This document shows, piece by piece, positions 2,526 to 59,382 of a stretch of 64,000 nt of DNA; within the stretch, counting starts at the first letter, position 1, and each line of letters begins with the position of its first letter. Below the pieces are notes generated by a model that was not told the origin of the DNA, did no database searches, and was given only the letters and a program-made list of their open reading frames with translations. Origin of the DNA: Planctomycetota bacterium (GTDB taxonomy: Bacteria; Planctomycetota; B15-G4; SIAN01); the NCBI GenBank assembly GCA_016795285.1, contig JAEUIC010000029.1, positions 133,518 through 197,517 on the forward strand, in the 5' to 3' direction. The position numbers were made by a program, and so were the translations under genes.

Positions 2526-2650
2526 CGAAGCGCCGCTCCCCCGCCGCCGCAGCGCCGCAGCGCCGCCGCAGTGCAGCAACACCTCCACCGGCGCACCGCT
2601 AGATTCCGCCGCCGCTCGACCAGACGCCCGGCCCACCGGAATCGCTGCTC

Positions 2651-4930: not shown

Positions 4931-5068
4931 GCGCGCGGTCGACGCCGGGCGCCCCCCGCGCGGCTTCGCTCGCCGGGAACTCGGGTCGGGTAGATCCATC
5001 GAACGGCACGCGCCGCGCGGCGTCTCCACGCCCGCCGCGTCCCCTTCGCTCCCCGCCCGGAACCCGCC

Positions 5069-8000: not shown

Positions 8001-11000
8001 ACGCGCGCGCGCCGCGTCCGGCGCCGCTCGATCCCTTCACCAGCTGCCTGCCCGGGATCGCGCCGCCGTTGCCGCCGCGCACGCCCGCCTTCGACGGCGA
8101 GGTCGCGGCGCTGCTGGCGACGCTCGACGGGCGCGCGCGGATCGCCGCGCTGGCGGGCGGCATCGAGGTGAGCCTGCGCGGCACGACCACGTCGCGGCGC
8201 GGCACGACGCTCTCGCTCGGCGAGGGGCGCGCGCTGCTGGCGGCCGATGGCTGGTGGAGCGAGCCGCTCCATCGCGCCGGCGACGACGCGACGATCGAGT
8301 GGTGGGACGGCGCGCAACGCGGCGCGTGGAGCCGCGCGTGGCAGCTCGGGCGCGTCCGCGCGACGCGCGCCGGCGACGCCGCGAGCTTCCCGGCGCTCCA
8401 CTCCTGGCTCTTCCCCGACCTCGACGCGCGCTTCCGCGGCCACGCGGTGACGTTCGGGCGCAGCGACGATGGACGCGTCCTGCTGCACCTCATTCCGCCG
8501 GGTGCACGCACGGCGTCGGGCGACGGCAACTTCACCGACGTCCTGATCGATGAGGCGAAGGCGCTGGTCCTCGAGGAGCGCTGGTTCTCCAGCAACGTCC
8601 TCGTCCACGTGGTGCGCGTCGAGGAGAGCCGCGAGGCGGCCGGCCGCTGGTGGCCGACCCGCATCGTCGCCGAGTCGCCGCGCGAGTCGACCCGCGTCGA
8701 GTGGCAGCTCGAGGTGACCGCGCTGGCCGCCGCCGACTTCGCGCCGCGCCTCGCTGCGGCCCTCGCGCCGCGCGCCGCGCTGATCGAGCTGCCGGAGCTC
8801 GACCCGACGCTGCACCCGACGCCGGCCGCCGCGTTGGCCGCCGCGCGCCAAGCCGTCGCCGACGGCAAGGCGGGCCTCCTCGAGCGCTGGCTGCTGCTCT
8901 CCGCCGCGGCCGCGCGCGACGAGCACGACGCGACGCGCGCCGCCTTCGCCGAGGTCGCCGCGCTCTGTGGCGGCAAGCCCGGCCTCGCGCGCCTCGAGCT
9001 GGTGCGCCACCTCGTCGTCCGCGAGCACGAGACGCTGCGCCTGCAGCTGCTCGCGCGCGCCGCGGCCGAGGCGGCCCGCCGCTCGCCGGGCGAAGTGGCG
9101 CGCGCCGAGACGCTCCTCGCGCTGGCGGCGCCGCTCCACGCCGGCGACGAGCAGCTCGCGCTGCTCGACGCGCTGACGCCGCTGTTCGAGCGGCAGCCGG
9201 ACGCGCCATGGGCCCGCTTCGGCCACGCGCGCCAGCGCCTCGCGCAACTGCAGGCGACGCCGCGCAGCGACGAGGCGTACGCCGCCGCGGAGAAGCTGGC
9301 GCGCGACTTCCCGACCGAGGTCGAGGCGCACCTCACCTGGAGCCAGTTCCAGGCGCAGCGCGGCGCCATCGATGCCGCGCTGCGGACGCTGGCCGACGCC
9401 GCTTCGAAGCATGCGCCGTGGAGCAGCGGCGAGCAGCAGCAGCTCGCCGACGCGCGCGTCACGCTGCTCTGGAACGGCTACCGGCTGGAGCAGCTCGTCG
9501 ACGAGACGAAGGCGCTGCTCTCGACCGACGCGGAGCGCGTGCCGCAGCAGCAGCTCGACCGCTACCTGAGCGCGCTGGTGATGCTCGATCGCGAGGCGGC
9601 GTGGTGGAGCACGATCGAGCAGTGGCTCGGCGAGGCGCGCGCGACGGTGCGCGCCGGTCGACGGCTCGGGGAGGGCGAGGAGCGGCGGCTCGCGGCCGCG
9701 GTCCGCCACGCGTTGGGGCAAGGCGAAGGGTGCTGGTGGTGGAATCGGCGGTTCGAGCCGGCCGAGGCGCAGCTGCTGGCCGACACGGGCCGCGAGCTCC
9801 TCGCCGACGAGCGGGCGGGACGCTACGGCGCGCAGCTGCTGCCGGCGCTGGGGGAGACGCTCGAAGGACGCGCGGCCTACGCGGCGCTCTGGAGCGAGCT
9901 GCGCGAGAACGCGGCGACGGCCGCGGCAACGCGCGTCGCGCGCTTCGTCGCGCTGCTGCGGCAGGTGAACTACCAGCCGGCCGGCGAGGAGGCGACGTGG
10001 CAGGCGCTCTTCGCCGCGCTGGCGGCGCGCGCGGCGGCGACCAGCGATGCGAACGAGCGCGCGGCACTCGAGACGCTGCTGCTCGGCTACGCGCAGAACG
10101 CGCTGCAGCTCGACGTGCGGCGCGCTCAGCTGGCGCGCGCGAGCAGCGACGCCGAGCGCGAGGCGGCGGCGGCGGCGCTCTTCGCGGCGCTGCTGCAGGA
10201 GGGGTGGAGCGAGCCGTTCGAGACGGAGCTGCGCGGGCTGATCGAGCAGGTCGGGCCGGGCGCATCCGTGGAGCTCGCGACCGCCGCGACGGAGGCCGCG
10301 AAGGAGGCCGCGCGCGGGCGCCGCTTCGCCCGGATCATCGCGTGGCACGACTTCGTCGATTGGGCCATCGCGGCGCGCGCGAAGGCGGCGGTCGCCGCGC
10401 TGCCCGGCAGCAATGCGCTGCCGCGCAAGAAGCTGCAGTTGGCGCAGGAGGAGCAGACGCGACTGGCCCGCCTCGCGGTCCACGCGCGCCTCACCGCGGA
10501 GCTCGAGCGGGCGCCGGACGGCGAGTTCGCCGACTGGCTGCGGCTCGACCGCGCGTGGCTCGACGTGAAGCTGCGCCGCGACACCGAGCCGGCGCGCCGC
10601 GAACTCCTCGCCCTCTTGGCACGGCGCCTCGATGCGGCCGGCGCGACGCCCATCGAGGAGCTCGAGCGGGACGCGCTGGTGGCGGCGCAGCGAGCGGCGA
10701 CGACGCTGCTCCATCTGCTCGCGACCGCGCCCGAGGCGGCGCGCGCGGAGCAGCAGCGCGAGTGGCTGGCGCTGCGCGATGCGGCGCAGGCGACGAAGGG
10801 CGCGCTGCTCGACTGGCAGGAACTCGACTGGACGCGCCTGGTGGCGCTCGATCGCGGCGACGAGCTGGTGGCGCTGCTCGAGCGGTGGCTCGGCGACGGG
10901 ACGCAGTACGCGTTGCTGCGCTTCGGGGTCGACCTCGCGTGGCTCCATGCGGAGCGCGGCGAACTCGACAAGGCGATCGCGCTGGGTTGGCGGCTGGCGG

Positions 11001-13861
11001 AGAAGGAGGCGCTCGGCCACGACGACTGGAACGCGCTGGCGGCGTGGTGCACGGCGCGCGGCCAGCAAGAGGCGGCGGCGCGCGCGCAGCTCGAGGCGTG
11101 GCTCGCGGTCGACGCCGACACGCTGCAGAACTTCCTCTGGCAGCAGCGCTGGCAGCTCGACGATCGCGGCGACGGCACGCCGGGCGAGCTCTCGCCCCAC
11201 ACCTTCGCTCAGGCGATCGCGATGCTGCGCAAGGCGGAGCAGCCGTCGCAGCACCTCTGGGTGATCCGCGACCTCTACGGCCGCACGAAGGAGTTCCGGC
11301 TGCTCGAGTGCCTCGCGGAAGGAGTGGTCGGCCACACGGCGCAGGGGATCTACGCGTTCCTCGGCGACCTCGCGGCGCTGGAGGCGCTGATCGACGAGGA
11401 GGCGACGGTCGATCGCATCGCGCAAGGGATCGCGAACGCGCGGCCGCGGGCGAAGAGCGCCGTCGATGCGCGCGCGCTCCGCTACCTCGAGTTCCTCTCG
11501 CGCTGGCGCGCCTCCGCGCAGGTGAATGGCGGCGCGGCGCACGCGACGGCGGCACTCGCCGCGATGAAGGCGGCCTTCGAGCCGGCCATGCAGCCGGGCG
11601 AGGGAGTGCTGCTGGCCGCGTTCCTCGCGCGCCTCGACCGGCTCCACGCCCCCGAGCTGGTGGCGGAGCAGCTGCGGCAGCTCGCCGCGCTGCTCGCCGC
11701 CGAAGCGGTCGGCAGCGACGCGCGCCTCGCGGTGGCTGGCGCGCTCGCCACCGCCGAATGGAATGCGAATCGCCACGACGCGTCGCTGCGCACCCTGCAG
11801 GGTGAGCTGCTGGCGCGGCGGCGCGCGAACGGCGATCGGCTGCCCGACAGCGCCAACGGGGCGCTCGCGACGCTGGTCGAGCGGCTCGCCACGCGCGGCC
11901 GCTTCCTCGAGGCGGAGAAGCTGCTGGATGATGAGCGGAGCGGCGAGCGCGTCGTCGCGCTCCACGCGAGCCGCGGCCACTGGCTCGAGCAGCAGCTCCA
12001 CGCGCTCTTCGCGCGCGCGCTGCGCGACCGCGGGAGCGTCTCGCTCGGCAGCGGTGCGGAGCTCTTCGCGAAGGCGCGCGCGGTCGTGCTGGAGCGCCTT
12101 GCGACGCGGAGCCACGAGGGGCGCGCGCAGGAACTGGTCGACGAGTTCGTCGCGCTCTGCCGCGCGGCGCACGAGGTGAGGCTGCCGCGCGTCGGCGAGG
12201 AGCTCGAGCAGTTCGCCTTCCAGCAGCTGCCGCGCACGCTGGCGGCCTACCAGTACCGGAACGGCCAATCGATGGTCGCGAACGTCGCGCAGGCGTTGCG
12301 CGATCTGGCGAGCGCGCCGGTCGCCGTCGAATTCCTCGTCACGCGCGCCGAGACGGAGCCGCGCTGGATCGCGCGCATGGGGCAGTCGTTCTTCGATCAG
12401 CAGGGGTGGCAGCTCGCGCGGTGGCGCCATGAGGCGCGCCGCCTCGACGAGCGGCTCGAGCGGCGGCTCCTCGCGTTGGTGGTGGCCGAGCTGCGCGGCG
12501 AGATGCGCCACGGTCGGCAACGCGCGCGCGGCTTCTACGACATCGCCTACGACACCTTCTGGGCGGCGAAGGCGGCCGACTTCGCGGCAGCCGCGAAGGC
12601 GGAGCACGCGGAGGGGCGCGACGACGAGGCGGTGACGCTGCGCGTCGCGGACTACCTCTACCAAGGGCTGAAGCGCCCGGCGGAGGGCGTCGCGTTGCTG
12701 CGCGAGCGGCTGCGCGGCGGCCGGCTCGGGCTCGATGGCCAGGTCACCTTCTGCCGCTGGCTCCACGAGCAGCGCGGCGACGCCGAGGCGAAGCCGTTGC
12801 TCCTGAAGCTGATCGCGGCGCGGCCGGGGCAGCTCGACCTGCGCTTCACGCTGATGGCGGTCTGCACCGCGCTGCGCGAGCCGGCGGAGGCCGATGCCGT
12901 GCGCGCCGGCTGCGAGAGCTGGCTGCGCGAGAGCAAGCAGTGGGACGTCGAGGAGAACGTGCGGCAGCTCGCGTGGGCGTGCTACGAAGCGGCCCTCTGG
13001 GAGCACGCCGCCGCCTACTACGGCGAGGCGATCACGATGCGGACGCGCAGCCACGGCGCGCGCGCCAACGGCGACGGGACGCTCGGCCCCTACTACGAGC
13101 GGCGGAGCGAGGCGCTCGCCAAGCTCGGCCGGACGATGGAGGCGATCGATGCGGCGGCGGGCGCGATCGTCGCGTGGGGCGCGAACCTCGACGAGCGCAA
13201 CCGGGCGCTGCGGACGCTCGACGGGGCGATTGCGTCGGCGCGCGACCTCGCGGCGGTGGCGGCGCGGATCGACGCGGAGGTCGCCGCGAGCGGCCTCGAG
13301 AACCCGCTGCTTCGCAAGTCGCTGGCGAAGGCGTGGCGCGAGCGCGGCGAGCTCGAGCAAGCGCAGGCGCAGCTCGAAGCGGCGCTCGAGGCGGCACCTG
13401 ACGACGCCGAGGTGACCCAGCTCCTGCTGCAGGTGCACGACGCGCGGCGCCAGCCGGAGGGGGCGATCGCGGCGCTCTTCGCGGCGATGGAGGCACGGCC
13501 CCACGATCTCGAGCTGCTGGTCGAGCTCGGCGCGCGGCTGACGCGGATCGAGCAGGCCGAGCGCGCCGAGCGGGTCCACACGCAGCTCGTCGAGGCGTTC
13601 CTCGGCGAGAGCGAGGGGCACGCCGCGCTGGCCACGGTGCGCGAAGCTCAGAAGCGCTACCGCGAGGCCGCCCTGCAGTGGGAGCAGGTGATCCGGATCC
13701 GCGGCAACGAGCCGACCGGGTGGCTCGGCCTCGCGAAGTCGCTGCTCGCCGCCGGCGACCGCGACGCCGCCCGCGCCCCGCTCGACAAGCTGCTCTCCAC
13801 CGACTGGGAGGCCCGCTTCGGCGACGTGAAGAGCGAAGCGCGCCGGCTGCTCCGCCGCTGA
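5069..13861 (+). CDS. Giant (2930 aa) secreted VIT-vWA domain protein with a C-terminal alpha-helical/TPR-like region of about 2200 aa
   Basis: Signal peptide. VIT domain signature (YHKVTVDIRDQIARTVIEESFENHTSTVLEGVFYFPLPADASISSFGMWIGDDLVEADIVEKERARAIYE...GNLFKARVYPISGEKRIKIGYTQVL). vWA domain with MIDAS motif (LLLCDTSGSLRG). The remainder is long, Leu/Ala/Glu/Arg-rich helical repeats. The 2948-aa ORF on the opposite strand is compositionally Arg/Pro-rich and has no domains, so it is judged a shadow. Confidence 0.8.
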   Translation: MRTPLAFGPATALTLVALALAPLFAGPLPAPLDPQAAQALAADASLAKVVDREGIGLARAGHSLRWRTAEPNEPLFAGEWLKTGARGAHALELRTKGGARLILGPGAQLELIDAATLRVAAGEVEIGADATQPLTVRGPGETVLTLAAPTVVRATEGRLEALKAEPPWLAGFKAGQPTEALGSLLATIDGREVPLTLGYHKVTVDIRDQIARTVIEESFENHTSTVLEGVFYFPLPADASISSFGMWIGDDLVEADIVEKERARAIYEQILREKRDPGLLEWTGGNLFKARVYPISGEKRIKIGYTQVLKKRDDTFRYHYALQSELLRANPLKQLSIDVHVSSAEPLAAVASPSHSCRVEATAHAATVSFEAQELRPDRDFELRLATVPAVNGGAWRGSPHLSFVDDQRGDDGYFMVRFTAPPAEVCPPPDESVPSDWLLLCDTSGSLRGAARERQLEFLEALLASLGPHDTIQVATCDVATRFAFPAPVFNDEANRAAALKFVLQREALGWSDLAGAFGECFQAMRKETQLVYVGDGIATLGDADPAKCADAITKAFPGRGRVHAVVPGNAQEPLVLRAITRLGDGSLREIGGGSDATQVAAALIADATDWRATDLKVAFDGVPVAAVYPETLPSLAMGEQQIVVGRYDARTARRGTVRVTGRGMAPLELPIVLDDLGEKGSFLPRLWARHHMDHLLAQPASKATREQVLALSEEFQLVSPYASFLVLESEADRERFRVQKQTRMRDGEEFFAKGRTDGDFALAQAQMEKAELWRVGIRRDVLAMLAALDRDLVERLRPQSNEVAWGEDRLEMVTRSFATGGGGGGRGGWQFAGMRGLDARSGAAQKPGAPTGGGWDGGVDKLNRVAANGNELLDFAGGEAEGAASDSDGEDDLGGSDLPPASEQAPEPAATPAPGEASFDDATAGGFALKSRARRAQASAARPMGGLSKFGYLSDLGDLSGERDASRGRDDGRSWYARAPRPAPLDPFTSCLPGIAPPLPPRTPAFDGEVAALLATLDGRARIAALAGGIEVSLRGTTTSRRGTTLSLGEGRALLAADGWWSEPLHRAGDDATIEWWDGAQRGAWSRAWQLGRVRATRAGDAASFPALHSWLFPDLDARFRGHAVTFGRSDDGRVLLHLIPPGARTASGDGNFTDVLIDEAKALVLEERWFSSNVLVHVVRVEESREAAGRWWPTRIVAESPRESTRVEWQLEVTALAAADFAPRLAAALAPRAALIELPELDPTLHPTPAAALAAARQAVADGKAGLLERWLLLSAAAARDEHDATRAAFAEVAALCGGKPGLARLELVRHLVVREHETLRLQLLARAAAEAARRSPGEVARAETLLALAAPLHAGDEQLALLDALTPLFERQPDAPWARFGHARQRLAQLQATPRSDEAYAAAEKLARDFPTEVEAHLTWSQFQAQRGAIDAALRTLADAASKHAPWSSGEQQQLADARVTLLWNGYRLEQLVDETKALLSTDAERVPQQQLDRYLSALVMLDREAAWWSTIEQWLGEARATVRAGRRLGEGEERRLAAAVRHALGQGEGCWWWNRRFEPAEAQLLADTGRELLADERAGRYGAQLLPALGETLEGRAAYAALWSELRENAATAAATRVARFVALLRQVNYQPAGEEATWQALFAALAARAAATSDANERAALETLLLGYAQNALQLDVRRAQLARASSDAEREAAAAALFAALLQEGWSEPFETELRGLIEQVGPGASVELATAATEAAKEAARGRRFARIIAWHDFVDWAIAARAKAAVAALPGSNALPRKKLQLAQEEQTRLARLAVHARLTAELERAPDGEFADWLRLDRAWLDVKLRRDTEPARRELLALLARRLDAAGATPIEELERDALVAAQRAATTLLHLLATAPEAARAEQQREWLALRDAAQATKGALLDWQELDWTRLVALDRGDELVALLERWLGDGTQYALLRFGVDLAWLHAERGELDKAIALGWRLAEKEALGHDDWNALAAWCTARGQQEAAARAQLEAWLAVDADTLQNFLWQQRWQLDDRGDGTPGELSPHTFAQAIAMLRKAEQPSQHLWVIRDLYGRTKEFRLLECLAEGVVGHTAQGIYAFLGDLAALEALIDEEATVDRIAQGIANARPRAKSAVDARALRYLEFLSRWRASAQVNGGAAHATAALAAMKAAFEPAMQPGEGVLLAAFLARLDRLHAPELVAEQLRQLAALLAAEAVGSDARLAVAGALATAEWNANRHDASLRTLQGELLARRRANGDRLPDSANGALATLVERLATRGRFLEAEKLLDDERSGERVVALHASRGHWLEQQLHALFARALRDRGSVSLGSGAELFAKARAVVLERLATRSHEGRAQELVDEFVALCRAAHEVRLPRVGEELEQFAFQQLPRTLAAYQYRNGQSMVANVAQALRDLASAPVAVEFLVTRAETEPRWIARMGQSFFDQQGWQLARWRHEARRLDERLERRLLALVVAELRGEMRHGRQRARGFYDIAYDTFWAAKAADFAAAAKAEHAEGRDDEAVTLRVADYLYQGLKRPAEGVALLRERLRGGRLGLDGQVTFCRWLHEQRGDAEAKPLLLKLIAARPGQLDLRFTLMAVCTALREPAEADAVRAGCESWLRESKQWDVEENVRQLAWACYEAALWEHAAAYYGEAITMRTRSHGARANGDGTLGPYYERRSEALAKLGRTMEAIDAAAGAIVAWGANLDERNRALRTLDGAIASARDLAAVAARIDAEVAASGLENPLLRKSLAKAWRERGELEQAQAQLEAALEAAPDDAEVTQLLLQVHDARRQPEGAIAALFAAMEARPHDLELLVELGARLTRIEQAERAERVHTQLVEAFLGESEGHAALATVREAQKRYREAALQWEQVIRIRGNEPTGWLGLAKSLLAAGDRDAARAPLDKLLSTDWEARFGDVKSEARRLLRR

Positions 13862-14089: not shown

Positions 14090-16207
14090 TCAGAACGTGA
14101 ACTCGAGGCGCAGGTAGAGCTGCCGCGGGGCGCCAGCGACCTTGCCGCCGCCGAAGAAGCCGCCGCGCGAGTGGACCAGCCACTCCTCGTCGAAGAGGTT
14201 GCTGGCACCGAGCGCTGCTCGGATCGTGCGCCCCCCCTCGCGTTCCCACGTCTTCTCGACTTGCGCGTCCCAGATCGTGCGCGACGGGTTGTGGCCGAGG
14301 TTGCCGTTCACGTTCTCGACCGCGGTGTTCGCCTCGTCGGAGAAGGAGTCGCCGACGTAGGTGCCACCCAGCGAGAAGCGCAGCCCGCCCTCCGCGAGGT
14401 AGTGGAAGTTCCACGCCGCCTTGCGCTCCCACGCGTACGGCGTCTCGTTGCCGCGGAACGGCCCTTCGCGCAGCTCCGACTCCTGCAGCGACGCCGAGAC
14501 CATCGCCCCGAAACCGGCGAGCGGCTCCCACATCGCGCCGGCATCGGCGTGCAGCGTGGCGTCGACGCCGTGCGCGACGATGCGCCCGATGTTCTCGTAG
14601 AAGCCGGAGTAGAAGACGCCGACGTCGTCGAAGTCGGTCCGCCACGCTGCCACGGTCCCGTCGATGCCGCCCGGCAGCTCCGCCCGCGTGCCGACCTCGA
14701 ACGAGTCGCCGTGCTCGAAATCGACGTCCTGCGCCGCCGCGCCCGCCGCGAGGTTGAACCCCCACACCTGCGGCGCCCGGAAGCCGCGTTGCCAGTTCGC
14801 GAACAGGGCCCAGTCGTCGCGCACGCGCCAGCTCGCGCTGACGCCCGGCAGCAGCGTGAAGAAGCGGTCGTCGAAGTCGCCGCCAAGCACCTCGTCGTCG
14901 CCGTCCGCGACCGGGATCCACTCGGCGCGCACGCCCGCGGTCAGCTCGAGCCCGTCGAGCGGCTCGAGCGTGTCGTCGACGTGCGCCGAGAACGACGTCA
15001 GGTCGAAGCTCGAGTCCTGCAGCACCGTCGCCGAGCCGCCGCCGAACGGCGTCGAGACGATCTCGTAGTCGGGCAGCCACTCCTGATGGGCGCGCAGTCC
15101 CCAATGGAGGCGATGGCCGCCGGCCGCGGCGAAGCGTCGCTCGCCGCGGATGCCGAGATCGACCCACAGCGAGTCGTCGGTCCAGTCGCGCACCTCGGTC
15201 GGCGCGCCGAACAGCGGGCGGCGCGCGGTGAGCTCGCGATGAGTCTGGCTGAACGCGACGTACGGCTCGATCCACGCCTCGTCGTTGCCGCGATGGTGGA
15301 CGACGTCGAACGCCGCGCGGAACCCGTCGAAGCGGCCCTCGGGCCGGGCGTTGCCGAAGCGATCGGCGGCGAACTCGGCGACGGTGAGGCCGCCCGGCGC
15401 CTGATGGCTGTCGGTGAACCACGAGAAGCGCGTCGCCGTCCACGCATCGGTGCCGTGCTCGCGGCGCAGCTTCACCTCGAGCGACTGCTGGTCGTACGCG
15501 CCGTCCTCGCGGTAGCCCTCGCCGCGCCGATCGCCGAGCGTGACCAGCCAGCCGAGCGCGCGATCGCTGCCGTCGCCGATCGTCGCCACCGTCGACATCG
15601 CATCGAACGAGCCGTAGGTCGACTGCAGCGACGACTCGAACCGGTCGGGGATCGGCCGCGTGATCACGTTGAGCACGCCGCCCACCGTGTTGGGCGAGTA
15701 GCGGACCGCTTGGCCGCCGCGGAGCAGGTCGATCGCGAAGACCTGCTCGGGGAAGAGCGGGAAGAACGAGAGCGCCGTCCAGCCGTACGGCAGCGGATTG
15801 GCCGGAACGCCGTCGATCAGCGGCAGCACGTACTCGGTGAGGCCGTCGTCCGGCAGTCCGTGGATCGAGAAGCTCGGCGCGGCCGCCTCGCCGCCGTTGT
15901 AGGGCCGCGTCGAGAGGGCCGGCAGGTAGAGCAGCAGGTCGTTCAGGTCGCGAGCCCCGATGGCGCGCACCTCCGCGGGACCGAGCACGTCGCGCGAACC
16001 TGGATGGCCGATCGGCACCACCGGCACGCCCGCCTGCCCGACCGAGCCGGTGACGAGCACCGCCGGCAGCTCGAGATCGGGCTTCTTGCCCCCCTCCTTC
16101 GGATCGGGCTCGCGAGCGCTCTCCTGCGCGCGCGCGACCGCTGGCGCGACGACGATCCCGAGCGCGACCCAACGCGACCTGCCCCGCATGCTCATCGGCG
16201 ACTCCAC
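14090..16207 (-). CDS. TonB-dependent outer-membrane receptor
   Basis: Signal peptide, plug-domain motifs, long beta-barrel region, C-terminal ...RLEFTF ending in Phe. 705 aa. Confidence 0.9.
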   Translation of the reverse strand: MESPMSMRGRSRWVALGIVVAPAVARAQESAREPDPKEGGKKPDLELPAVLVTGSVGQAGVPVVPIGHPGSRDVLGPAEVRAIGARDLNDLLLYLPALSTRPYNGGEAAAPSFSIHGLPDDGLTEYVLPLIDGVPANPLPYGWTALSFFPLFPEQVFAIDLLRGGQAVRYSPNTVGGVLNVITRPIPDRFESSLQSTYGSFDAMSTVATIGDGSDRALGWLVTLGDRRGEGYREDGAYDQQSLEVKLRREHGTDAWTATRFSWFTDSHQAPGGLTVAEFAADRFGNARPEGRFDGFRAAFDVVHHRGNDEAWIEPYVAFSQTHRELTARRPLFGAPTEVRDWTDDSLWVDLGIRGERRFAAAGGHRLHWGLRAHQEWLPDYEIVSTPFGGGSATVLQDSSFDLTSFSAHVDDTLEPLDGLELTAGVRAEWIPVADGDDEVLGGDFDDRFFTLLPGVSASWRVRDDWALFANWQRGFRAPQVWGFNLAAGAAAQDVDFEHGDSFEVGTRAELPGGIDGTVAAWRTDFDDVGVFYSGFYENIGRIVAHGVDATLHADAGAMWEPLAGFGAMVSASLQESELREGPFRGNETPYAWERKAAWNFHYLAEGGLRFSLGGTYVGDSFSDEANTAVENVNGNLGHNPSRTIWDAQVEKTWEREGGRTIRAALGASNLFDEEWLVHSRGGFFGGGKVAGAPRQLYLRLEFTF

Positions 16208-18119: not shown

Positions 18120-19577
<1,458 letters not shown>

Positions 19578-21166: not shown

Positions 21167-22924
21167 CTACTTCGCGCGCGCCTGCAGCCATGCGACGACG
21201 GTCGCGAGGAACTCGGGATCGACCGGCCGCGGCCGCAGGTAGTCGGCGGTGGTCGGCGGGATCGTCGTCACCTTCTTGAAGAGGTGGTCGAGCGCCGCGA
21301 ACTTCGCAAGAGTTGCATCGGGATGGCCGGCCGCCTGCAGCGTCGCCAGCAGTGGCGGCGCATCGCGCTCCGCCGAGACCTGCACGTCCTGCTCGCCCTG
21401 CGCGATCAGCACCGGGCACTTCACCTGCGCGATCGTCGCCAGCGGATCGTGGCGCGCGTGGCTTCGCAGCCAGTCGCGATCGGCGAGCGCCGGTCGGTAG
21501 TCGGCGCGCACCTGCTGCAGATCGATCGGCCCGTCGCCGGCGACGAGCTTCAGGAACTCGGCGTGCACCGCGAGTTCGTCGTCGAGCAGCTTCCCGCGCA
21601 GACCCGCCGCCTCGAGCCCGGCGCGCTTCTGCTCGCGCAAGAGCGCCATCAAGTCGCGGCCGGGAGCGGCCAGCAGCACGACGCCGCGCAGCGGCTGCTC
21701 GATGGCCAGCAGCGGCGCGATCACGCCCCCCTCGCTGTGGCCGATGACGAAGAGGCGCTCCGGGTCGACGTCGTCGCGCGCGCAGAGCAGCTCGAGCCAG
21801 CCGCGCGCGTCGTCGGCGAGGTCGCGCAGCGTCGCACCGGTCAGCGTGCCGCCGCTCGCGCCGGTGCCGCGGTCGTCGACGCGCAGCACCGCGAAGCCGG
21901 CCGCGGTGACCGCGTCGAGCAGCTCGTGCGTCCCGAGGTCGAGGCCGCCCGAGAGGCCGTCGCGATCCTGCGGCCCGGAGCCGCCGACGAAGAGCAGCGC
22001 CGGCAAGCGGCCGGTCGCGCCGAGCGGCTTGGTGACGGCGCCGGCGAGCGTGAAGCCGCCGCGCGCGAGCGTCACCTCCTCGCGCGCGAAGTCGGCGCGC
22101 GGCAGGCTCGGCGGCGCGACCGTGAAGCGCTCGAGCGGCGCGTCGGTGCGGCGGATGCGGAAGCCCTGCGCCGGGATCTCGATCTCGAAGATCGCGCCGT
22201 CTTCGCGGAGCCGCGTCACCTGGCCGAGCGAGTCGCGGACCTTGCGGCCGCGATGGACGACGCCGTCGCGCTCGACCACGTAGTCGGCGAGGCGGCGCAG
22301 CTCGAAGGCCAGCATCGCCACGCTGTCGGCGTGGAAGAGCGGCGGGCGGAGCGTCTCGCCCTCCTCCGGCCGCGCCGCCAGCACGATCAGCTCCATCAGG
22401 CCGATCCAGTTGTTGGCGAGCAGCAGCGCGTCGGGGCCGACCGGCGCGACGATCGGCTGGCTCTTCGGGCCGCTGACGAGTCGCCCCCGCGCCTGGCCGT
22501 CGGCGACGACGAACTCGAGGTCGTGGACCATGCCGCCCACTTCGGAGAGGAAGTGCGCGCGGCGCGGATGGCCGCCGTCGTCGACGATCACCTCGCCGCT
22601 CGCGCGCAGCTCCGCCTTGCCGAGCGGTCCCTGCTGCTCGATCCGCCAACCGCCGGTGAAACGGTGGAGCGGCGGCGCGACGTCTTGCAGCGGACCGGCG
22701 TAGTCCCACCACGAGTGGCCGATCGCGACGCCGCCCTGCTCGAAGAGGAATCCCGCCTGCGCGCCGGGCGCGTAGTGGTCGGCGACGCGGAACGGCGCGC
22801 TCAATGCCGCGGGAGCTGCCGCGGTTGCTGCCGGGGGCGCTGCCGCTGGCGGCGTCTCCTGCAGCGGTGCGCAGCACAGGAACGCCGCCGCGAGCCACCC
22901 ACCGCCGATCGTCGTCGCCATCGC
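21167..22924 (-). CDS. Secreted alpha/beta-hydrolase fold protein (peptidase/esterase-like)
   Basis: GHSEGG nucleophile elbow (GxSxG). Likely start at MATTIGGGWLAAAFLCC (signal). The 35-codon N-terminal extension in the ORF track covers the REP-like repeat and is rejected. Confidence 0.7.
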   Translation of the reverse strand, partial: AMATTIGGGWLAAAFLCCAPLQETPPAAAPPAATAAAPAALSAPFRVADHYAPGAQAGFLFEQGGVAIGHSWWDYAGPLQDVAPPLHRFTGGWRIEQQGPLGKAELRASGEVIVDDGGHPRRAHFLSEVGGMVHDLEFVVADGQARGRLVSGPKSQPIVAPVGPDALLLANNWIGLMELIVLAARPEEGETLRPPLFHADSVAMLAFELRRLADYVVERDGVVHRGRKVRDSLGQVTRLREDGAIFEIEIPAQGFRIRRTDAPLERFTVAPPSLPRADFAREEVTLARGGFTLAGAVTKPLGATGRLPALLFVGGSGPQDRDGLSGGLDLGTHELLDAVTAAGFAVLRVDDRGTGASGGTLTGATLRDLADDARGWLELLCARDDVDPERLFVIGHSEGGVIAPLLAIEQPLRGVVLLAAPGRDLMALLREQKRAGLEAAGLRGKLLDDELAVHAEFLKLVAGDGPIDLQQVRADYRPALADRDWLRSHARHDPLATIAQVKCPVLIAQGEQDVQVSAERDAPPLLATLQAAGHPDATLAKFAALDHLFKKVTTIPPTTADYLRPRPVDPEFLATVVAWLQARAK

Positions 22925-22977
22925 CTCGCTCCGCGCCCGAGCTGGATCGGCGGCGGATGGTAGCTCTGGCGTTTCGT

Positions 22978-23086
22978 TCCGGGAGCGTTCCGCCGCCGAC
23001 TTCCGCACCTCGCGCCGAGCGCGTCCCATCGCCGCTGGCGCAGTGTGGAAGGGTGCGGATCGCCGCGGCGGAACGCTCCCGGAACG
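22978..23086. repeat. Large palindrome formed by two inverted copies of the REP-like element (CCGGGAGCGTTCCGCCGCCGACTTCCGCACC ... GGTGCGGATCGCCGCGGCGGAACGCTCCCGG)
   Basis: Arms of about 31 bp separated by about 45 bp. Located between the hydrolase gene start and the stop of ECF-fusion gene 23097..26594. Confidence 0.8.
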
Positions 23087-23096: not shown

Positions 23097-26000
23097 TTAG
23101 CGGCGGCTCACGAGTTCCGTGACGGAGCCGGCGACGATCTCGGCGCTCGCCTCGCGGACGGCGCCGTCGGGCGAGGTGATGACGATTCGAATGGGGCCGG
23201 GCGGCAGCGCGGGGAGTCGCCAGCGGCCGCCCTGCACCATCAGATGCGCCCACGGCACCGCACCGTCGAGCCACGCGCCGTTCGAACCGACTCGCGGCAG
23301 CGGCGCGCCGTGCAGGTCCTCGACGACGACCTCGGCGCCGAGCTCCGGCTGGCCGTCGCCACCGAGCAGCAGCAGCGACAGCGCGCCGCACGGCGGTGGC
23401 GCGAGCGTCCGCTCGATCCGCCCTGACTCGTTCGCGCCGATCGAGAGGCGCGTCGCCGCCGGCATCGGCAGCTCGCGAGCGGTCCAGAACGTCGGCGCCA
23501 CCAGCAGCTCGAGCGCCCCTTCGGGCAGCTCGTGGACGATCAGCCGCCCCGCTTCGATCGTGTGGCGCGCCAGGTAGGGAGCGAGGCCGTCGGCGGCGAC
23601 GGTGACGCCCCACGGAGCGCGGCCAGAGGAGTCAATCGCGCTCGGCGGCGGGAGCGTCAACGCCAGCTCGCGCGTCGAGCGGCGCAGCGTGACGGTGCTC
23701 TCGCCGGGCAGCGACTCGACGAAGCTCGCATCGACCTCCTGCGGCACGAAGCCGGTCGCGTGGACCAGCACACTCCAACGACCGGGAACGAGCGCGCGCG
23801 TCGTGAAGCGGCCGTCGGCGTCGCTGGTCGTGCGGCGCGGATCACTGCTCTCGAGCGACGGCACCTGCCACCGCCGCGCCGGCGGCAGCGCGACGCTCCC
23901 GTCGGCCGCGAAGACGAGGCCTGGCCAGCCGAGCACTTCAACGCTGGCGCCTGCGATCGGCGCGCCGCTCTCGTGATCGATCACGCGACCCGTCAACGGA
24001 CCGAACGCCAGATCGAGGTCGATCGACGGCTCCTCGCCGGGCGCGAAGCTCGGCAGCTCGCCCACGGAACCGTGGACGCTCTCGTCGCTCGTCCCGTTCA
24101 CCGTCCAACGCAACGGCCGGCCGCTCGGCACCGCGAGGTCGAAGAAGCCCTCGTCATCGAGCGGCTGCGACGACCCCGCGGCGCGCACCGGCTCGACGTC
24201 GGTGAGGGCGAGGAGTCCGCCGCGCAACGGCTCGCCGTTCACGCGCAGCGAGCCGGTGAAGCGGGCGCGCTGCGACTCGGGGAGCACGTGGAATTCGAGC
24301 GTGGCGGACTCGCCTTCGCGCAGCACGATCTCGCGCGCCGAAGGGCCGGCGAGGAGCAGGTCGCTCGGGATCATCGCCTGCACGACGTACTCGCCGGGCA
24401 GCAGTCGCTCGAAGCGGTACGAATCGTCGAGGTCGGCGGTGCGACCTCCCGAGCTGCTGGTGCGCGGTTGGAAGAAAAGGGAGCGCAACGGGACGGCCTC
24501 ACCAGGGAGCGGCGCCACCACCCGCTGCTGGAACAGGAACTTCGGCCGCATCGGCGACTTCGGTGCGCCGATCAGCCGCACCTGCAAGCTCGCGCCGCGC
24601 TGCAGCGCAACCACGGGCGGACCCGACGATGCCGCGAGCGGCACGTCGAGCTGGCGTGGCGCGAACTCGGCGTGCGCCACGCGCAGCGTCGCCCACTCGC
24701 CGCGCGCCGGCAGCTCGAAGAAGCCGGCGGCGTCGCTGGTTGCGCGAGCGTCGCTCTTCGGTGCCTTCGCGGGATCGCCGTCGAGCGGATACGAGGCCGC
24801 CTGCCCCGACACGAGCAGCACGACGGCGTTCGCGATCGGCGCCCCATCACTCGCCGCGACCACGCGACCGCGCAGCACGCCGACCGCGGCGATCGCGACG
24901 TCGATCGCGAGGTCGGCCCCGCACGGCAGCTCGACGAACTTCTCGACGGCCGCGCGTCCCGACACCTCGACGCGCACGTTCAAGCGGACCGGTGCTTCGA
25001 TGCTGGAGAAGCGCCAGCTCGCCGGCTCGTCGGGGTCGCGCTCGACCGAGAGCTGCCGGCCGCCACCGACGATCCCGCGCGTCGGCGGATTGGCGAGCCA
25101 CGGCGCGAACGCCTCGACCGTCACGCTCGGCTCGACGCCGTCGGGCAGCGCGCCGCTCACGACGACCCGTCCGCGCGCCGGGCGACCGAGCGCCAGCCGA
25201 TGCGTCTCGCCGGGATCGACCGCGAAGACGCTCACCGCGAACCCCTCCCGCTCCACGCGTACGCCGATCGCGCCATGACTGCGGCCTCCCGACGCCCCTT
25301 CGTCCGTCGGGAGGCCGGTCATGCGGAACGTGCCGTCCGCTCCGCTGGTCGCCGACTGCACGGCGCCGACTTCGAGCAGCGGCAGCTCGCTCGGCAGCGG
25401 CTCGGGCAGGGCCCAGTTGGCCCAGTCGTCGCAAGCGAGCAGCGCCGCACCCGCGACCGGCACCCCCGTCTCGTCGACGACGATGCCGGCCACGGTGCCG
25501 CCGGCGCGGACGATCAGCGGCGGCAGCTCGAGACCGTCGACGACCTTCGACGGCTCGCGTGGCTCGGCGGCCAGGCGACCGGGCAGGCCCGCCAACAATT
25601 GCAGCAGCGCGTCGACATGGAGCCCGGCGAGCTCGAAGCGGCCGTCGCTGTCGCTGTGCTGATCGACGTGCCAGACCATCTGCGACGCATCGGCGCCGAC
25701 GAGCTCGAGCGCCATGATCCGCGCGCCCGGCAACGGAGCGCCGCTCTCGTCGACGACGCGGCCGCGGACGGTGGCGAGCGCGGCGGAACTCTTAGCGGCG
25801 AGCGGCGCCGCGAGAGTGGCGAGGGCGGCAGCGCTGGCGCCGTTCGGGTCGCCGCTCGCTCCAGATGCCGCCGCGTCCGCGGCCGCGGGCGCGCCGATCG
25901 CCACCGCCGGAGCGGGCTGCTCGTCGGGGCGCGTCCACCGCCACGCGCCGATCAACGCACCGCCGATCAACAGCGCCGCCGCCACCTTCGTCGCCAGCGC

Positions 26001-26594
26001 GGCGCCGCCGCTCGCGATCGGCTCGAGGCCCCACGCGAAGCTCGCCAACCACTCGCTACGGCCGCCCGGATGGAGCGCGTCGAGTTTCGCGCGCAGCTGC
26101 TCGAGGGCGCGTCGCAATCGGGTGCGCACGGTCGGCTCGGGCGCCCCTTCACCGGCGGCGATCTGCGCGACGGAGCGCTCCTCGAAGAAGCGGAGCACGA
26201 TCACGCGTCGGTAGGGCTCGTCGAGTTCGGCGACCGCGTTCGCGAGCAGCCGCAGCGTCTCCGCGCGCTCGAGCGCGTCCTCGGTGGTCTCCACCTCCGA
26301 GCGGGCGACGGCCGCCTCGCGACGAGTGCGCCGCGCCGCGCTGCGCTGCGAGCGGAACGCGAGGTTGCGGACGACCGCGGCGAGCCACGAGCGGCCGTCC
26401 CGCAGGTGCGCCGGCGGCTGCGTCAGCGCGACGGCCGCCGCCTCCTGGACGGCATCGGCGGCCGCGTCGTCGTCGCGCAGCAGCTGGCGCGCGAGCGCGT
26501 GGAGGGAGCGGCGATGCTGCTCGAAGAGAGCCGCCATCGCGCTCGCCGGATCCGCTGCGCCCATCGCATCGATCGCATCCATCGCCTGCTCCAC
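23097..26594 (-). CDS. ECF sigma factor fused to a transmembrane helix and a large extracytoplasmic domain (about 900 aa) of carboxypeptidase-regulatory-like repeats
   Basis: N-terminus has sigma-70 region 2 (DAVQEAAAV...) and region 4 HTH (YRRVIVLRFFEERSVAQIAAGEGAPEPTVRTRLRRALEQLRA). This is followed by a hydrophobic segment (AAALLIGGALIGAWRW), then repeated GRVVDxxGxPxxGA...SDxDGxFxL units. 1165 aa. Confidence 0.8.
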   Translation of the reverse strand: MEQAMDAIDAMGAADPASAMAALFEQHRRSLHALARQLLRDDDAAADAVQEAAAVALTQPPAHLRDGRSWLAAVVRNLAFRSQRSAARRTRREAAVARSEVETTEDALERAETLRLLANAVAELDEPYRRVIVLRFFEERSVAQIAAGEGAPEPTVRTRLRRALEQLRAKLDALHPGGRSEWLASFAWGLEPIASGGAALATKVAAALLIGGALIGAWRWTRPDEQPAPAVAIGAPAAADAAASGASGDPNGASAAALATLAAPLAAKSSAALATVRGRVVDESGAPLPGARIMALELVGADASQMVWHVDQHSDSDGRFELAGLHVDALLQLLAGLPGRLAAEPREPSKVVDGLELPPLIVRAGGTVAGIVVDETGVPVAGAALLACDDWANWALPEPLPSELPLLEVGAVQSATSGADGTFRMTGLPTDEGASGGRSHGAIGVRVEREGFAVSVFAVDPGETHRLALGRPARGRVVVSGALPDGVEPSVTVEAFAPWLANPPTRGIVGGGRQLSVERDPDEPASWRFSSIEAPVRLNVRVEVSGRAAVEKFVELPCGADLAIDVAIAAVGVLRGRVVAASDGAPIANAVVLLVSGQAASYPLDGDPAKAPKSDARATSDAAGFFELPARGEWATLRVAHAEFAPRQLDVPLAASSGPPVVALQRGASLQVRLIGAPKSPMRPKFLFQQRVVAPLPGEAVPLRSLFFQPRTSSSGGRTADLDDSYRFERLLPGEYVVQAMIPSDLLLAGPSAREIVLREGESATLEFHVLPESQRARFTGSLRVNGEPLRGGLLALTDVEPVRAAGSSQPLDDEGFFDLAVPSGRPLRWTVNGTSDESVHGSVGELPSFAPGEEPSIDLDLAFGPLTGRVIDHESGAPIAGASVEVLGWPGLVFAADGSVALPPARRWQVPSLESSDPRRTTSDADGRFTTRALVPGRWSVLVHATGFVPQEVDASFVESLPGESTVTLRRSTRELALTLPPPSAIDSSGRAPWGVTVAADGLAPYLARHTIEAGRLIVHELPEGALELLVAPTFWTARELPMPAATRLSIGANESGRIERTLAPPPCGALSLLLLGGDGQPELGAEVVVEDLHGAPLPRVGSNGAWLDGAVPWAHLMVQGGRWRLPALPPGPIRIVITSPDGAVREASAEIVAGSVTELVSRR

Positions 26595-26644
26595 TCCGTC
26601 CGCGGTCGCTCCGAAAGGCAGGAGCCCGCGGTCACGCGAAGTGA

Positions 26645-26700
26645 TTCACGATTCCGGCGTGTGGCGGGGGCGTGTGCGGATCGCGGCGGCGGATCACTCC
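26645..26700. repeat. REP-like element, divergent copy
   Basis: Reverse complement reads cgtttcgttccgggagtgatccgccgccgcgatccgcac. It lies directly upstream of the ECF-fusion gene start at 26594. Confidence 0.6.
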
Positions 26701-26712: not shown

Positions 26713-26889
26713 TCACCGCTTCGCCGGCTCCGCCGCCCAGGCGGTGGCGAACCAGACGATGGAGGCGAGCAGGAGCCAGCGCTTCACGGCCGGCAGATCG
26801 AGCGCGCCGTGGAAGTAGGCGAGCGCCGGCCAGAGGGTGGTCGCCAGCGCGAGCCAGGAGACGATCCGCAGCAGTCGTCGCAGCGTCAT
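26713..26889 (-). CDS. Small two-TM membrane protein, translationally coupled (ATGA overlap) to the upstream NCS1 transporter gene
   Basis: MTLRRLLRIVSWLALATTLWPALAYFHGALDLPAVKRWLLLASIVWFATAWAAEPAKR. Start chosen at the Met that overlaps the transporter stop codon. Confidence 0.45.
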   Translation of the reverse strand: MTLRRLLRIVSWLALATTLWPALAYFHGALDLPAVKRWLLLASIVWFATAWAAEPAKR

Positions 26890-43036: not shown

Positions 43037-44515
43037 CTACTCCTCGAACTCGACCTGCCCGCGCCGCCACTCGGGCGGCAGCGGCTCGGTGAGGGGGACG
43101 ATCCACGGCGCGGGGGCGAGCGAGCGCTCCACGGCGGCGAGGTCGACGTTCGGATCGATCAGCGGCTGCGCATCGCGGCCGTTCAGCGAGCAGTCGACGA
43201 TGGCGCGGACTTGCGGGCGGCGCGCGGCGCCGGTGGCGGGATCGACGACCGTGTAGCGGCGCGCGAGGTGGTGGGCGTACTGCAGCACCATCTCGGGGCG
43301 ATCGCCCATCTTCTGCGCCTGCCAGTCGGCGAGCTCGGCGCGCGGGTCGACGATTCGCCGCTCGCCGGTGACGGGATCGGTGACGACGAAGTGGGCGCTC
43401 GACGTCTTGCTGCGCAGCTTCATGTGCCACGCGAAGAGGTGCCCCTCCTCGGTCCAGCTGACATTGCCGGGGTAGAGGAAGTGGCGCAGCGGGAAGAGCA
43501 GTTGGTAGGCGAGCCAGAGCGCCACGAGCGCGAGCGTGGCGCGCGCGAGCCGCGGCGGCGCGGCGGTGGCGAACGCGGCGAGCGGCCGCTCGACCGTCGT
43601 CTCGCCCTCGCGTCGCGCGAGCGCCTGGAAGACCCCCGAGTCGTAGCCGAACAGCGCGCGCGCCTCCGCCTGCTCCTGCCGCTGCCAGCCGCCGCGCCAG
43701 CGCGCGAGCCAGCGGCTCGGCCAATCGGGCGCGAAGAAGAGCGTCGTCGCGGCGATCGCCATCCACGGGAAGATGCCGATGTCGAAGAGGCAGGCGTTCA
43801 GCAGGTGGAAGCAGCAGAGCGCCGCGAACATCGCCACGCGCGTGCGCCGCCAGCAGAGGAGCGGCACCGCCAGCAGGTCGAGCAGCAGCCCCGACCAGCT
43901 CATGAACCACGGCGTCGCCGGATGGAGCAGCAGCGGGCCGATCAGCGGCAGCTCGCCGCGCCCCTTGAGCCACTGGCGCAACGGCTCGCCCTGCAGCCAG
44001 TCGCCGTTCACCTTCGCCAGCGCCGCGTAGCCGTAGACGATCAGCAGTTGCGCGCGCAGCAGGAAGAGCGCGAGGGACGGCGCCGGCCGGCGACCGCGCA
44101 GCGCCGCGCGCAGCGACCACTCCCCATCGGTCGGCACCCACGCCAGCAAGAGCAGCAGCAGGAGCACCAGATAGAAGTGGTTCAGGTAGCGCGCCTGCTC
44201 GAGCAGGAAGACCCAGCCGAAGCCGACGAAGAAGAGCGCCGCTGCGGTGCGCGTCCACCAGCCGACGGCGATCAGCGCCGCCAAGACGCCAAGCGCCGCG
44301 AACAGCGCCTGCAACCCCTCGAGCGACGGCCGCTCGACCCACTCGAAGCCGAAGTAGCGGAAGTGGAACGGCGGCGCGACGTAGTGCGCCTCGATCCAGC
44401 CGGCCGAGAAGAAGCGCGTCACCTCCCACAGCAGGATCGCGCCGAACGCGATGCGGAAGAAGGCGAGCGACGCGGCCGGGATCGGCGCGGCCAGCAACCG
44501 GCGTAGTCGTTCCAT
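43037..44515 (-). CDS. HTTM-domain (vitamin K-dependent gamma-carboxylase-like) integral membrane protein
   Basis: N-terminal HTTM signature (ASLAFFRIAFGAILLWEVTRFF...) and multiple TMs. Start at MERLRRLL; the upstream 25 codons in the ORF track lie within a tandem duplication. Confidence 0.7.
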   Translation of the reverse strand: MERLRRLLAAPIPAASLAFFRIAFGAILLWEVTRFFSAGWIEAHYVAPPFHFRYFGFEWVERPSLEGLQALFAALGVLAALIAVGWWTRTAAALFFVGFGWVFLLEQARYLNHFYLVLLLLLLLAWVPTDGEWSLRAALRGRRPAPSLALFLLRAQLLIVYGYAALAKVNGDWLQGEPLRQWLKGRGELPLIGPLLLHPATPWFMSWSGLLLDLLAVPLLCWRRTRVAMFAALCCFHLLNACLFDIGIFPWMAIAATTLFFAPDWPSRWLARWRGGWQRQEQAEARALFGYDSGVFQALARREGETTVERPLAAFATAAPPRLARATLALVALWLAYQLLFPLRHFLYPGNVSWTEEGHLFAWHMKLRSKTSSAHFVVTDPVTGERRIVDPRAELADWQAQKMGDRPEMVLQYAHHLARRYTVVDPATGAARRPQVRAIVDCSLNGRDAQPLIDPNVDLAAVERSLAPAPWIVPLTEPLPPEWRRGQVEFEE

Positions 44516-44593
44516 CGAGCGGACCCATCCGCGGCCGCCGTCGTCGGCGACCGCCACATCTCCGCGGCCGCCGTCGTCGGCGACGGCCATATC

Positions 44594-59311: not shown

Positions 59312-59382
59312 GCCGGCTGATTGTCGCCTGCACTTCGTTCGTTACGGGCCGACCGAAACTCCCGCGATCGCCCGTCGACCGA

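Follow-up and report, generated by a model that had tools for sequence, protein, structure and literature searches.

Sigma factors joined through a single predicted membrane helix to long exported beta-sandwich arrays in a Planctomycetota bacterium

Three sigma factor fusion genes in a 64-kb window

The DNA analyzed here, referred to throughout as the window, is a 64,000-nucleotide (nt) stretch of a Planctomycetota bacterium (positions 133,518 to 197,517 of contig JAEUIC010000029.1). It carries three genes, which we call copies A, B, and C, whose products each consist of an N-terminal extracytoplasmic function (ECF) sigma factor, one transmembrane (TM) helix, and a long exported domain made up of CarboxypepD_reg repeats. 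An earlier note on this DNA, made from the sequence alone, had proposed this architecture for all three. Copies A and B are complete open reading frames (ORFs) at the coordinates given in that note, on the minus strand, and the architecture was confirmed directly for both of them. Copy C is cut by the window edge, and in this case the same architecture was confirmed via the full-length protein, which was recovered by protein search at 100% identity (P0052 = MBL8842960.1, 989 aa). The features of the three copies are listed below, with models made by AlphaFold2 (AF2) and their confidence given as the predicted local distance difference test (pLDDT).

23097..26594 (-): copy A, complete gene for an ECF sigma/TM/beta-sandwich-array protein, 1165 aa (annotated start M5 at 26582, MBL8842969.1, 1161 aa)
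26331..26528 (-): copy A sigma region 2, aa 23-88 (PF04542, 28.4 bits, cutoff 24; AF2 pLDDT >90)
26082..26252 (-): copy A sigma region 4, aa 115-171 (PF08281, 44 bits; PF04545, 37 bits; Foldseek matches to region 4 of SigL and sigmaE at a root-mean-square deviation of 1.3-2 Å)
26025..26060 (-): copy A conserved, predicted cytoplasmic juxtamembrane helix, aa 179-190, motif G-x-R-x-x-W-(L)-x-x-L (47-sequence consensus, alignment, AF2 pLDDT ~75; no Pfam match)
25935..26000 (-): copy A single TM helix, about aa 199-220 (hydrophobic segment aa 199-217, Kyte-Doolittle 1.85; AF2 helix 201-220; position kept in relatives)
25779..25934 (-): copy A Ala/Pro-rich, disordered, predicted periplasmic linker, aa 221-272 (pLDDT <50; sequence)
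23100..25778 (-): copy A exported array of about ten CarboxypepD_reg/Ig-like beta-sandwich domains, aa 273-1165 (PF13620, 140 bits; AF2 all-beta; Foldseek, generic Ig-like arrays)
55901..59311 (-): copy B, complete fusion gene, 1136 aa (database start ATG 59245, 1114 aa)
59042..59236 (-): copy B sigma region 2, aa 26-90 (Sigma70_r2)
58781..58942 (-): copy B sigma region 4, aa 124-175 (Sigma70_r4_2)
58538..58594 (-): copy B TM helix, aa 240-258 (hydropathy)
55904..58537 (-): copy B exported part (CarboxypepD_reg)
1..2525 (+): copy C, C-terminal 840 aa of the 989-aa fusion, cut by the window edge
3..137 (+): copy C end of region 4 and linker (alignment with copy A)
138..194 (+): copy C TM helix, aa 46-64 of the fragment (hydropathy)
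195..2522 (+): copy C exported array (CarboxypepD_reg)

The whole window has a G+C content of 73%, and long spurious ORFs are abundant in it. In such a background, the third-position GC of 0.85-0.90 that we measured by codon position for 3..2525 (+), 23097..26645 (-), and 55901..59341 (-) identifies the frames of the three copies as real genes. Copies A and C are 100% identical to MBL8842969.1 and MBL8842960.1, respectively, both of which lie on a 276,749-bp contig of a Planctomycetes metagenome-assembled genome (MAG); all three copies are labeled in the database solely as "sigma-70 family RNA polymerase sigma factor." The database starts lie slightly downstream of the ORF starts, at M5 in copy A and at M23 in copy B. 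A family-specific hidden Markov model (HMM) of the sigma part, run over the whole window, revealed no sigma domain beyond the three copies.

The N-terminal part is an ECF sigma domain predicted to face the cytoplasm

In copy A, the Sigma70_r4_2 match extends over aa 115-167 and scores 44 bits against a cutoff of 25.7, and the ECF model TIGR02937 is matched end to end both by copy A (aa 19-171) and by copy B. Full-length copy C scores 38.5 bits with Sigma70_r2, which is above the cutoff, and 21.1 bits (E = 2.4e-4) with Sigma70_r4_2, which is under the Pfam cutoff of 25.7. Regions 2 and 4 are present and regions 1 and 3 are absent, as in ECF (group 4) sigma factors, with copies A and B above the cutoffs and region 4 of copy C below. 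The full ECF sigma domain expected by the earlier note is thus supported by PF04542, PF08281, PF04545, and TIGR02937 in copies A and B and by a fold that matches SigL, SigW, and sigmaE. The same note had singled out the extension of copy C before nt 138 as a stretch that should align with the other copies; its 45 residues do align with the end of region 4 and the linker of copy A.

The first 300 residues of copy A were modeled with AF2 using a 47-sequence alignment. The model shows the sigma fold at pLDDT >90 to about aa 180, followed by helix 179-190 (pLDDT ~75), a low-confidence loop, TM helix 201-220, and then disorder. When the sigma part of copy A was compared with the PDB using Foldseek and phmmer, only ECF sigma factors were returned; the best match was Mycobacterium tuberculosis SigL (32% identity, E = 8.6e-14), and AlgU, SigW, and sigmaE were the other leading structural or sequence matches.

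The exported domain comprises ~880-940 aa in copies A and B and contains the repeat motif GRVVDxxGxP...SDxDGRF, as the earlier note had said. CarboxypepD_reg (PF13620) scores 118-157 bits across the copies against a cutoff of 32.3, with 140 bits in four stretches in copy A and 118 bits in three stretches in copy B. In the AF2 model of aa 255-1165 of copy A (mean pLDDT 78; predicted template modeling score, pTM, 0.58), this part is all-beta and forms roughly ten sandwich domains. Its Foldseek matches in the PDB were the Bacillus anthracis TIE protein, Gram-positive pilins, SdrD, and alpha-2-macroglobulin, all with TM-scores <0.15, so that the likeness to Ig-like arrays holds at the level of single domains only. 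The same search of the PDB gave no enzyme fold and no recognizable ligand-binding fold.

Of 49 relatives of copy A, 46 have a single membrane helix directly after region 4, as do 231 proteins overall. The mean net charge across 49 family members is +1.35 for the 20 residues that precede this helix and -0.4 for the 20 that follow it, and no N-terminal signal peptide was found in the fusions. CarboxypepD_reg arrays are typical of exported proteins. Taken together, the N-in charge bias, the missing signal peptide, and the exported type of the arrays place the sigma domain inside the cell and the repeats outside. Hydropathy, charge bias, and the disordered linker accordingly predict a type II single-pass (N-in) topology with an exposed periplasmic segment.

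The segment between region 4 and the membrane is short and lacks a recognizable anti-sigma domain

Region 4 and the TM helix are separated by ~27 aa in copy A, ~35 aa in copy C, and ~60 aa in copy B; the family median, counted from where the sigma HMM match stops, is 41 aa. A class I anti-sigma domain needs ~90 aa. FecR, zf-HC2, RskA, and other Pfam anti-sigma families were not found in the whole proteins, the isolated linkers matched no Pfam family at all even at E<=10, and no anti-sigma domain was detected among the neighboring genes of the copies or of the orthologue loci. The proposal that these proteins work without a separate anti-sigma factor is therefore upheld for the linkers and for the adjoining genes. 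Two types of linker could be distinguished by consensus and alignment: type 1, LDxxxGGxRxxWLxxLxxL, occurs in copies A and C and in most relatives, and type 2, which is longer and has an RGLAAVRxxVL helix, occurs in copy B and its group. In copy A, aa 1-260 contain no cysteine.

The fusions form an old and widespread family

The earlier note had described the copies as paralogues and as evidence of a large expanded family. Paralogy is supported by the sigma parts, which are 31% identical between copies A and B (E = 3e-8), but it is distant, and the exported parts align solely at the repeat motif. Nothing else aligns between the copies, which are old paralogues and not the product of a local burst. 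Similarly, the family is indeed large, but three copies in 64 kb do not reflect a recent local expansion; they represent three old lineages, each with its own orthologues. We found 3 orthologues of copy A (full-length identity 37-47%), 7 of copy C (39-72%), and about 12 of copy B (29-59%). Between orthologues, the sigma part is 58-75% identical (94% in the closest pair) and the exported part 32-58% (72%). The sigma part is the best conserved in all three groups, which argues for selection on sigma function and for faster change in the exported chain.

The architecture, defined as an N-terminal ECF domain with a TM helix within 130 aa, is present in 231 of the 400 proteins collected, with lengths of 624-1515 aa (median 1035). 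A profile search of 1.84 billion representative sequences returned 76,667 matches at E<=1e-30; these are dominated by giant CarboxypepD_reg arrays, and the search therefore gives no family size. Fusions made up 55 of its best 150 matches, and the rest were giant repeat proteins. Nearly all named sources are MAGs of Planctomycetota; Kofleriaceae and Myxococcota are represented once each. A scan of species-representative genomes with copy C gave no relative. Clustering of paralogues recurs in other genomes and is not peculiar to this window. Locus L003 holds a tandem pair of sigma/TM/CarboxypepD_reg fusions (2871..6227 and 6317..9835), locus L010 holds two fusions ~3 kb apart (2184..5159 and 8001..10949), and one 8.07-Mb chromosome holds at least two.

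The exported part also occurs in relatives without a sigma domain, such as QDV08629.1 of Saltatorellus ferox Poly30, which start with a Lys-flanked hydrophobic anchor ending in W-W-x-R. CarboxypepD_reg repeat proteins that lack a sigma domain and have a signal anchor like the TM helix of the fusions include P0087, P0104, P0110, P0139, P0143, and P0171. Proteins of the QDV08629.1 type share the kind of anchor and the array that make up the C-terminal 80% of the fusions, and judging from this likeness they are probably the ancestors of the fusion extension. Since these relatives begin directly with the same kind of K-x-K/hydrophobic/W-W-x-R anchor, a duplicated sigma core was probably grafted onto the N terminus of a signal-anchored CarboxypepD_reg repeat protein. 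Pinto and da Fonseca have described how duplicated planctomycetal sigma cores gain unrelated C-terminal extensions upon insertion next to or into other genes (PMC7671368), and the anchored relatives without a sigma domain fit this duplication-and-insertion model.

No NCBIfam subfamily or equivalog model reached its cutoff with the fusions (PRK09645, 73 bits against 202; SigE-fam_strep, 82 against 141.5). In the open-access literature, with the supplements of the ECF classifications and planctomycete surveys outside the scope of the search, we found no paper that links CarboxypepD_reg with a sigma factor. The copies were compared with the ECF groups by the description of each group, and they may belong to an existing ECFhub group.

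Candidate promoters and the neighborhood of copy A

Each orthologue group has a motif upstream of the fusion gene. For the copy A group, the motif is (T/G)GAA(T/C)(C/G)-N15-16-GGCTC, and for the copy C group it is GCAGGGCYC-N11-GGTGTCY. In the copy B group, the motif contains an AAC-containing -35 element (GTAAC), typical of ECF promoters; it is unique in the window, with 0.0-0.2 occurrences expected by chance. The copy B motif ends 6 nt before ATG 59311, and its counterpart in L007 ends 9 nt before the called start. Such short distances suggest mRNAs without a leader or miscalled starts; for copy B, either the mRNA lacks a leader or translation truly begins at ATG 59245, the database start. 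Overall, the upstream motifs are consistent with autoregulation of the fusions. The two candidate promoters in the window and the gene that follows copy A are the following.

26622..26648 (-): promoter-like TGAATC-N16-GGCTC upstream of copy A (conserved upstream of the orthologues P0002 and P0003)
59318..59345 (-): ECF-type promoter-like GTAACG-N16-CAATCA upstream of copy B (present as GTAAC(G/A)-N15-16-CAAnnA upstream of the orthologues in L007 and L008)
21167..23029 (-): exported S9/S15/S33-type alpha/beta-hydrolase (Pfam), 67 nt downstream of copy A

The hydrolase gene also follows the fusion orthologues in L001, L002, and L003, at a spacing of 39-69 nt, and is a probable operon partner of copy A. 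As a conserved neighbor, it is a candidate regulon member or a candidate processing protease. Within its reading frame, a lipoprotein-like signal (MATTIGGGWLAAAFLCCAPLQ) comes after an internal Met, and the product may be an exported lipoprotein. The block common to the copy A orthologues comprises a 3-keto-disaccharide-hydrolase-like gene, three or four genes for hypothetical or membrane proteins, the fusion, the hydrolase, a di-haem cytochrome c, and DinB. No terminator-like hairpin was found between copy A and DinB; one lies just past DinB, at 19497..19481.

Between copy A and a transporter-like gene (26894..~28300) lies a 58-aa ORF (26713..26889 (-), MTLRRLLRIVSWLALATTLWPALAYFHGALDLPAVKRWLLLASIVWFATAWAAEPAKR) whose product has two hydrophobic stretches. 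The ORF begins with an ATG 5 nt past the stop of the transporter-like gene, and no counterpart of it is called in L001 or L003.

Comparison with known membrane-linked sigma factors

By their proposed mechanism, the fusions most resemble IutY and ECF52. IutY of Pseudomonas putida (ECF243) is likewise a single polypeptide that starts with an ECF sigma factor, crosses the membrane with one helix, and ends in a periplasmic part. It is cleaved by Prc and RseP and is the only ECF sigma factor for which release by regulated intramembrane proteolysis has been established experimentally (PMC8999054); being the sole established case, it provides the working model for the mechanism of the fusions. However, IutY has a FecR-like anti-sigma domain between sigma factor and membrane and receives a siderophore signal through a TonB-dependent transducer, whereas FecR is absent from the fusions, their periplasmic part consists of ~900 aa of beta-sandwiches, and the window holds no signaling TonB transducer. 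The only TonB-dependent receptor of the window (14090..16207 (-)) comprises a Plug and a barrel without a signaling extension and is adjacent to none of the three copies.

ECF48, ECF52, and ECF53 have been predicted to be activated by proteolysis (PMC8999054; PMC5826349). ECF52 (SCO4117 of Streptomyces coelicolor), together with ECF48 and ECF53, resembles the fusions in the order of ECF sigma factor, TM helix, Pro-rich extracytoplasmic stretch, and beta-rich binding-type domain. These groups are actinobacterial; in them, region 4 is followed by a zinc-finger (ZAS-like) anti-sigma module, one or two TM helices, and a carbohydrate-binding domain, and their extensions reach ~400 aa at most. In contrast, copy A is planctomycete, has no cysteine before the membrane and no zf-HC2 match, and carries an extension of ~990 aa in which the one TM helix and the Ala/Pro-rich linker are followed by CarboxypepD_reg and not by a recognized carbohydrate-binding module. 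The absence of an anti-sigma domain from a linker of ~25-60 residues rules out membership of the fusions in either the IutY or the ECF52 group.

ECF57, too, is a planctomycetal group; a genome holds an average of 5.3 copies (PMC7826278), and the members have a long C-terminal extension and no separate anti-sigma factor. WD40-like repeats and a pair of conserved cysteines that link regions 2 and 4 have been described for this group (PMC8999054). The fusions are set apart from ECF57, by the description of that group, in having CarboxypepD_reg repeats, no WD40 match, and no conserved cysteine in the 47-sequence consensus. Finally, the logic predicted for the fusions is also that of the RseA/sigmaE system, in which a single-pass type II protein whose sensor part is periplasmic tethers a cytoplasmic sigma factor to the membrane until site-1 and site-2 cleavage sets it free. 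That system, however, consists of two proteins and has a four-helix anti-sigma domain of ~90 aa, and the fusions are one protein without such a domain. Overall, the architecture is real and common in Planctomycetota, and it is a variant of the known idea of membrane-tethered ECF sigma factors rather than a new kind of system.

How the fusions might work

The reading that we favor, with a probability of about 0.55, is that the sigma factor is kept sequestered by the membrane until regulated proteolysis sets it free. Each fusion would then be a one-polypeptide transmembrane signaling device, composed of a cytoplasmic ECF sigma factor, an N-in/C-out helix, a disordered periplasmic tether, and about ten beta-sandwiches. 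Region 4 would be held so near the membrane that the sigma factor could probably not form a productive holoenzyme on promoters, and the short conserved juxtamembrane helix may add to this inhibition. A signal acting on the exported array, be it binding of a ligand or polymer, unfolding, or attack by a protease, would lead to a cut in the exposed juxtamembrane tether, for which the linker at aa 221-272 of copy A is a candidate site-1 region. An intramembrane (site-2, RseP-type) protease would next cut the TM helix, and the freed sigma domain of ~20 kDa would transcribe its own promoter and a small regulon, which in the case of copy A would probably include the downstream hydrolase, cytochrome c, and DinB genes. 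Release by proteolysis, which the earlier note had presumed, is a reasonable inference for which IutY, with Prc and RseP, and the proposal for ECF52 serve as precedent (PMC8999054).

Several observations weigh against this reading. Neither a site for cleavage nor a partner protease nor a processed form is visible in the sequence. The TM helices of the fusions have a mean Kyte-Doolittle value of 2.17, compared with 2.09 for the hydrophobic stretches (anchors or signal peptides) at the N termini of the relatives without a sigma domain, and a glycine content of 8.2% compared with 5.7%; being no less hydrophobic and only slightly enriched in glycine, they bear no clear signature of site-2 protease substrates. 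In copy B, a second, weakly hydrophobic Ala/Gly stretch precedes the TM helix (aa 215-233, Kyte-Doolittle 1.58), although in orthologue alignments it looks like a juxtamembrane segment, with 10-13 residues ending in Lys-Lys, rather than a second TM helix. The copy A motif occurs once in the window against 0.73 occurrences expected by chance and alone is not significant. In the orthologous loci of copy A, the neighbors are 57-80% identical and the fusion 43-47%. Because the neighbors are more conserved than the fusion itself, the synteny may reflect close relatedness only, and we have downgraded it as evidence for a regulon. We also know of no experimentally established precedent for tethering as the sole inhibitor of a sigma factor, and both IutY and ECF52 carry an anti-sigma domain.

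The same lack of an anti-sigma domain would also fit a sigma factor that is active while tethered. Like ToxR, CadC, or TcpP, it would recruit RNA polymerase to membrane-proximal DNA, and the array would modulate it by oligomerization or conformation, without proteolysis. The linker is conserved to a greater extent than a mere spacer would be, and in ECF41 and ECF42 the C terminus of region 4 tolerates large fused domains (PMC7826278). Nevertheless, we consider an active tethered sigma factor unlikely because, with a linker of only ~27 residues in copy A, a 400-kDa polymerase and promoter DNA would have little space at the membrane, and the ECF reviews covered, which include PMC7826278 and PMC8999054, give no precedent for a membrane-bound active sigma factor. 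The conserved linker can alternatively be read as a minimal built-in anti-sigma element. In this scenario, the short helix after region 4 would resemble the two-helix class II anti-sigma factor CnrY, occlude the polymerase-binding surfaces, and be undocked by a signal passing through the TM helix, with or without cleavage. GxRxxWLxxL in type 1 and RGLAAVRxxVL in type 2 are conserved immediately past region 4, the AF2 model has a helix at this place with moderate confidence, and the structural matches of the sigma part include CnrH/CnrY. However, the helix has just ~12 residues in copy A and no sequence-family match even at E<=10, and the Foldseek matches, being at the level of whole chains, say nothing on docking of the helix to region 2 or 4; we regard this explanation as unlikely, slightly more so than an active tethered sigma factor.

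It is improbable that the fusion has no signaling meaning, with a duplicated sigma core merely inserted ahead of the gene for an anchored surface or periplasmic repeat protein, so that the product would chiefly serve the envelope as a structural or adhesive protein. Such an origin would account for the anchor and repeats shared with the relatives that lack a sigma domain and for an exported part without a sensor-like fold, and planctomycetal ECF extensions have been suggested to stem from fortuitous insertion (PMC7671368). But a vestigial sigma domain would hardly be better conserved than the rest of the protein in each of the three orthologue groups, match the ECF models over their full length, and persist with a conserved linker in 231 distinct proteins. 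An artificial merger of adjacent sigma and anchored-repeat genes by an assembly or frame error in the MAG is effectively refuted because the uninterrupted frame recurs in independent NCBI, JGI, ENA, and Logan assemblies at 29-100% identity.

A bolder form of sequestration by the membrane, which we offer as speculative and do not expect to hold, is that the fusions represent a distinct class of sigma regulation without any anti-sigma surface, in which a very short tether alone silences the sigma factor. The fast-evolving beta-sandwich chain would then be a sacrificial bait or tripwire, and its cleavage or mechanical disruption by foreign proteases, predators, or envelope damage would be what sets off release. 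If this were true, the many divergent paralogues of a genome would constitute an array of sensors of envelope integrity or attack that are wired directly to transcription.

Planctomycetota encode exceptionally many ECF sigma factors, and to our knowledge almost none of them has been studied. The fusions may be a major route by which events at the unusual planctomycete envelope are coupled to transcription. Lacking an anti-sigma domain, they provide a clean test of silencing by membrane tethering alone, and they are a concrete case of how new one-component sensors could arise by grafting of a sigma core onto an anchored repeat protein. The conceptual gain is nonetheless incremental because the genes are already labeled as sigma factors and the concept of tethered, proteolysed ECF sigma factors is established (IutY, ECF52).

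Other genes in the window

Copy C is followed on the same strand by a gene for an M60-like (enhancin-type) peptidase with a signal peptide (2651..4930 (+)) and a gene for a 2930-aa VIT/vWA protein (5069..13861 (+)), and the earlier note had treated the three as a trio. This arrangement is not conserved, as orthologues of copy C at 42% identity adjoin a divergent HEAT-repeat gene, near urocanase, and we have rejected a functional link of copy C to the M60 and VIT/vWA genes on this ground. An unrelated M60 gene lies near the copy B orthologue in L008.

Two co-directional hypothetical genes had been noted upstream of the copy at 55901..59311 (-). The nearer one (59383..60363 (-)) looks real; the other, probably 60588..61274 (-), looks spurious, with an Arg/Ser/Ala-rich junk translation and poor third-position GC. 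In its place, codon-position GC favors 60391..60987 (-), directly upstream of 59383..60363 (-). A functional link of copy B to its upstream genes was rejected because the neighborhoods of its orthologues are unrelated to one another. Copy B is followed, after about 1.4 kb and past the convergent UPF0261 gene (54541..55854 (+)), by a co-directional gene for an 824-aa Ser/Thr protein kinase fused to an FGE-sulfatase (formylglycine-generating-enzyme-like) domain (51989..54463 (-)).

Elsewhere in the window, 45114..50909 (+) encodes a 1931-aa protein with FG-GAP repeats, DUF7133, HEAT repeats, a cytochrome c motif, and a C-terminal 3-keto-disaccharide hydrolase domain (DUF1080), and 43037..44590 (-) encodes a bacterial HTTM/vitamin-K-dependent gamma-carboxylase-like protein (HTTM, 245 bits; VKGC lumenal domain, 143 bits).

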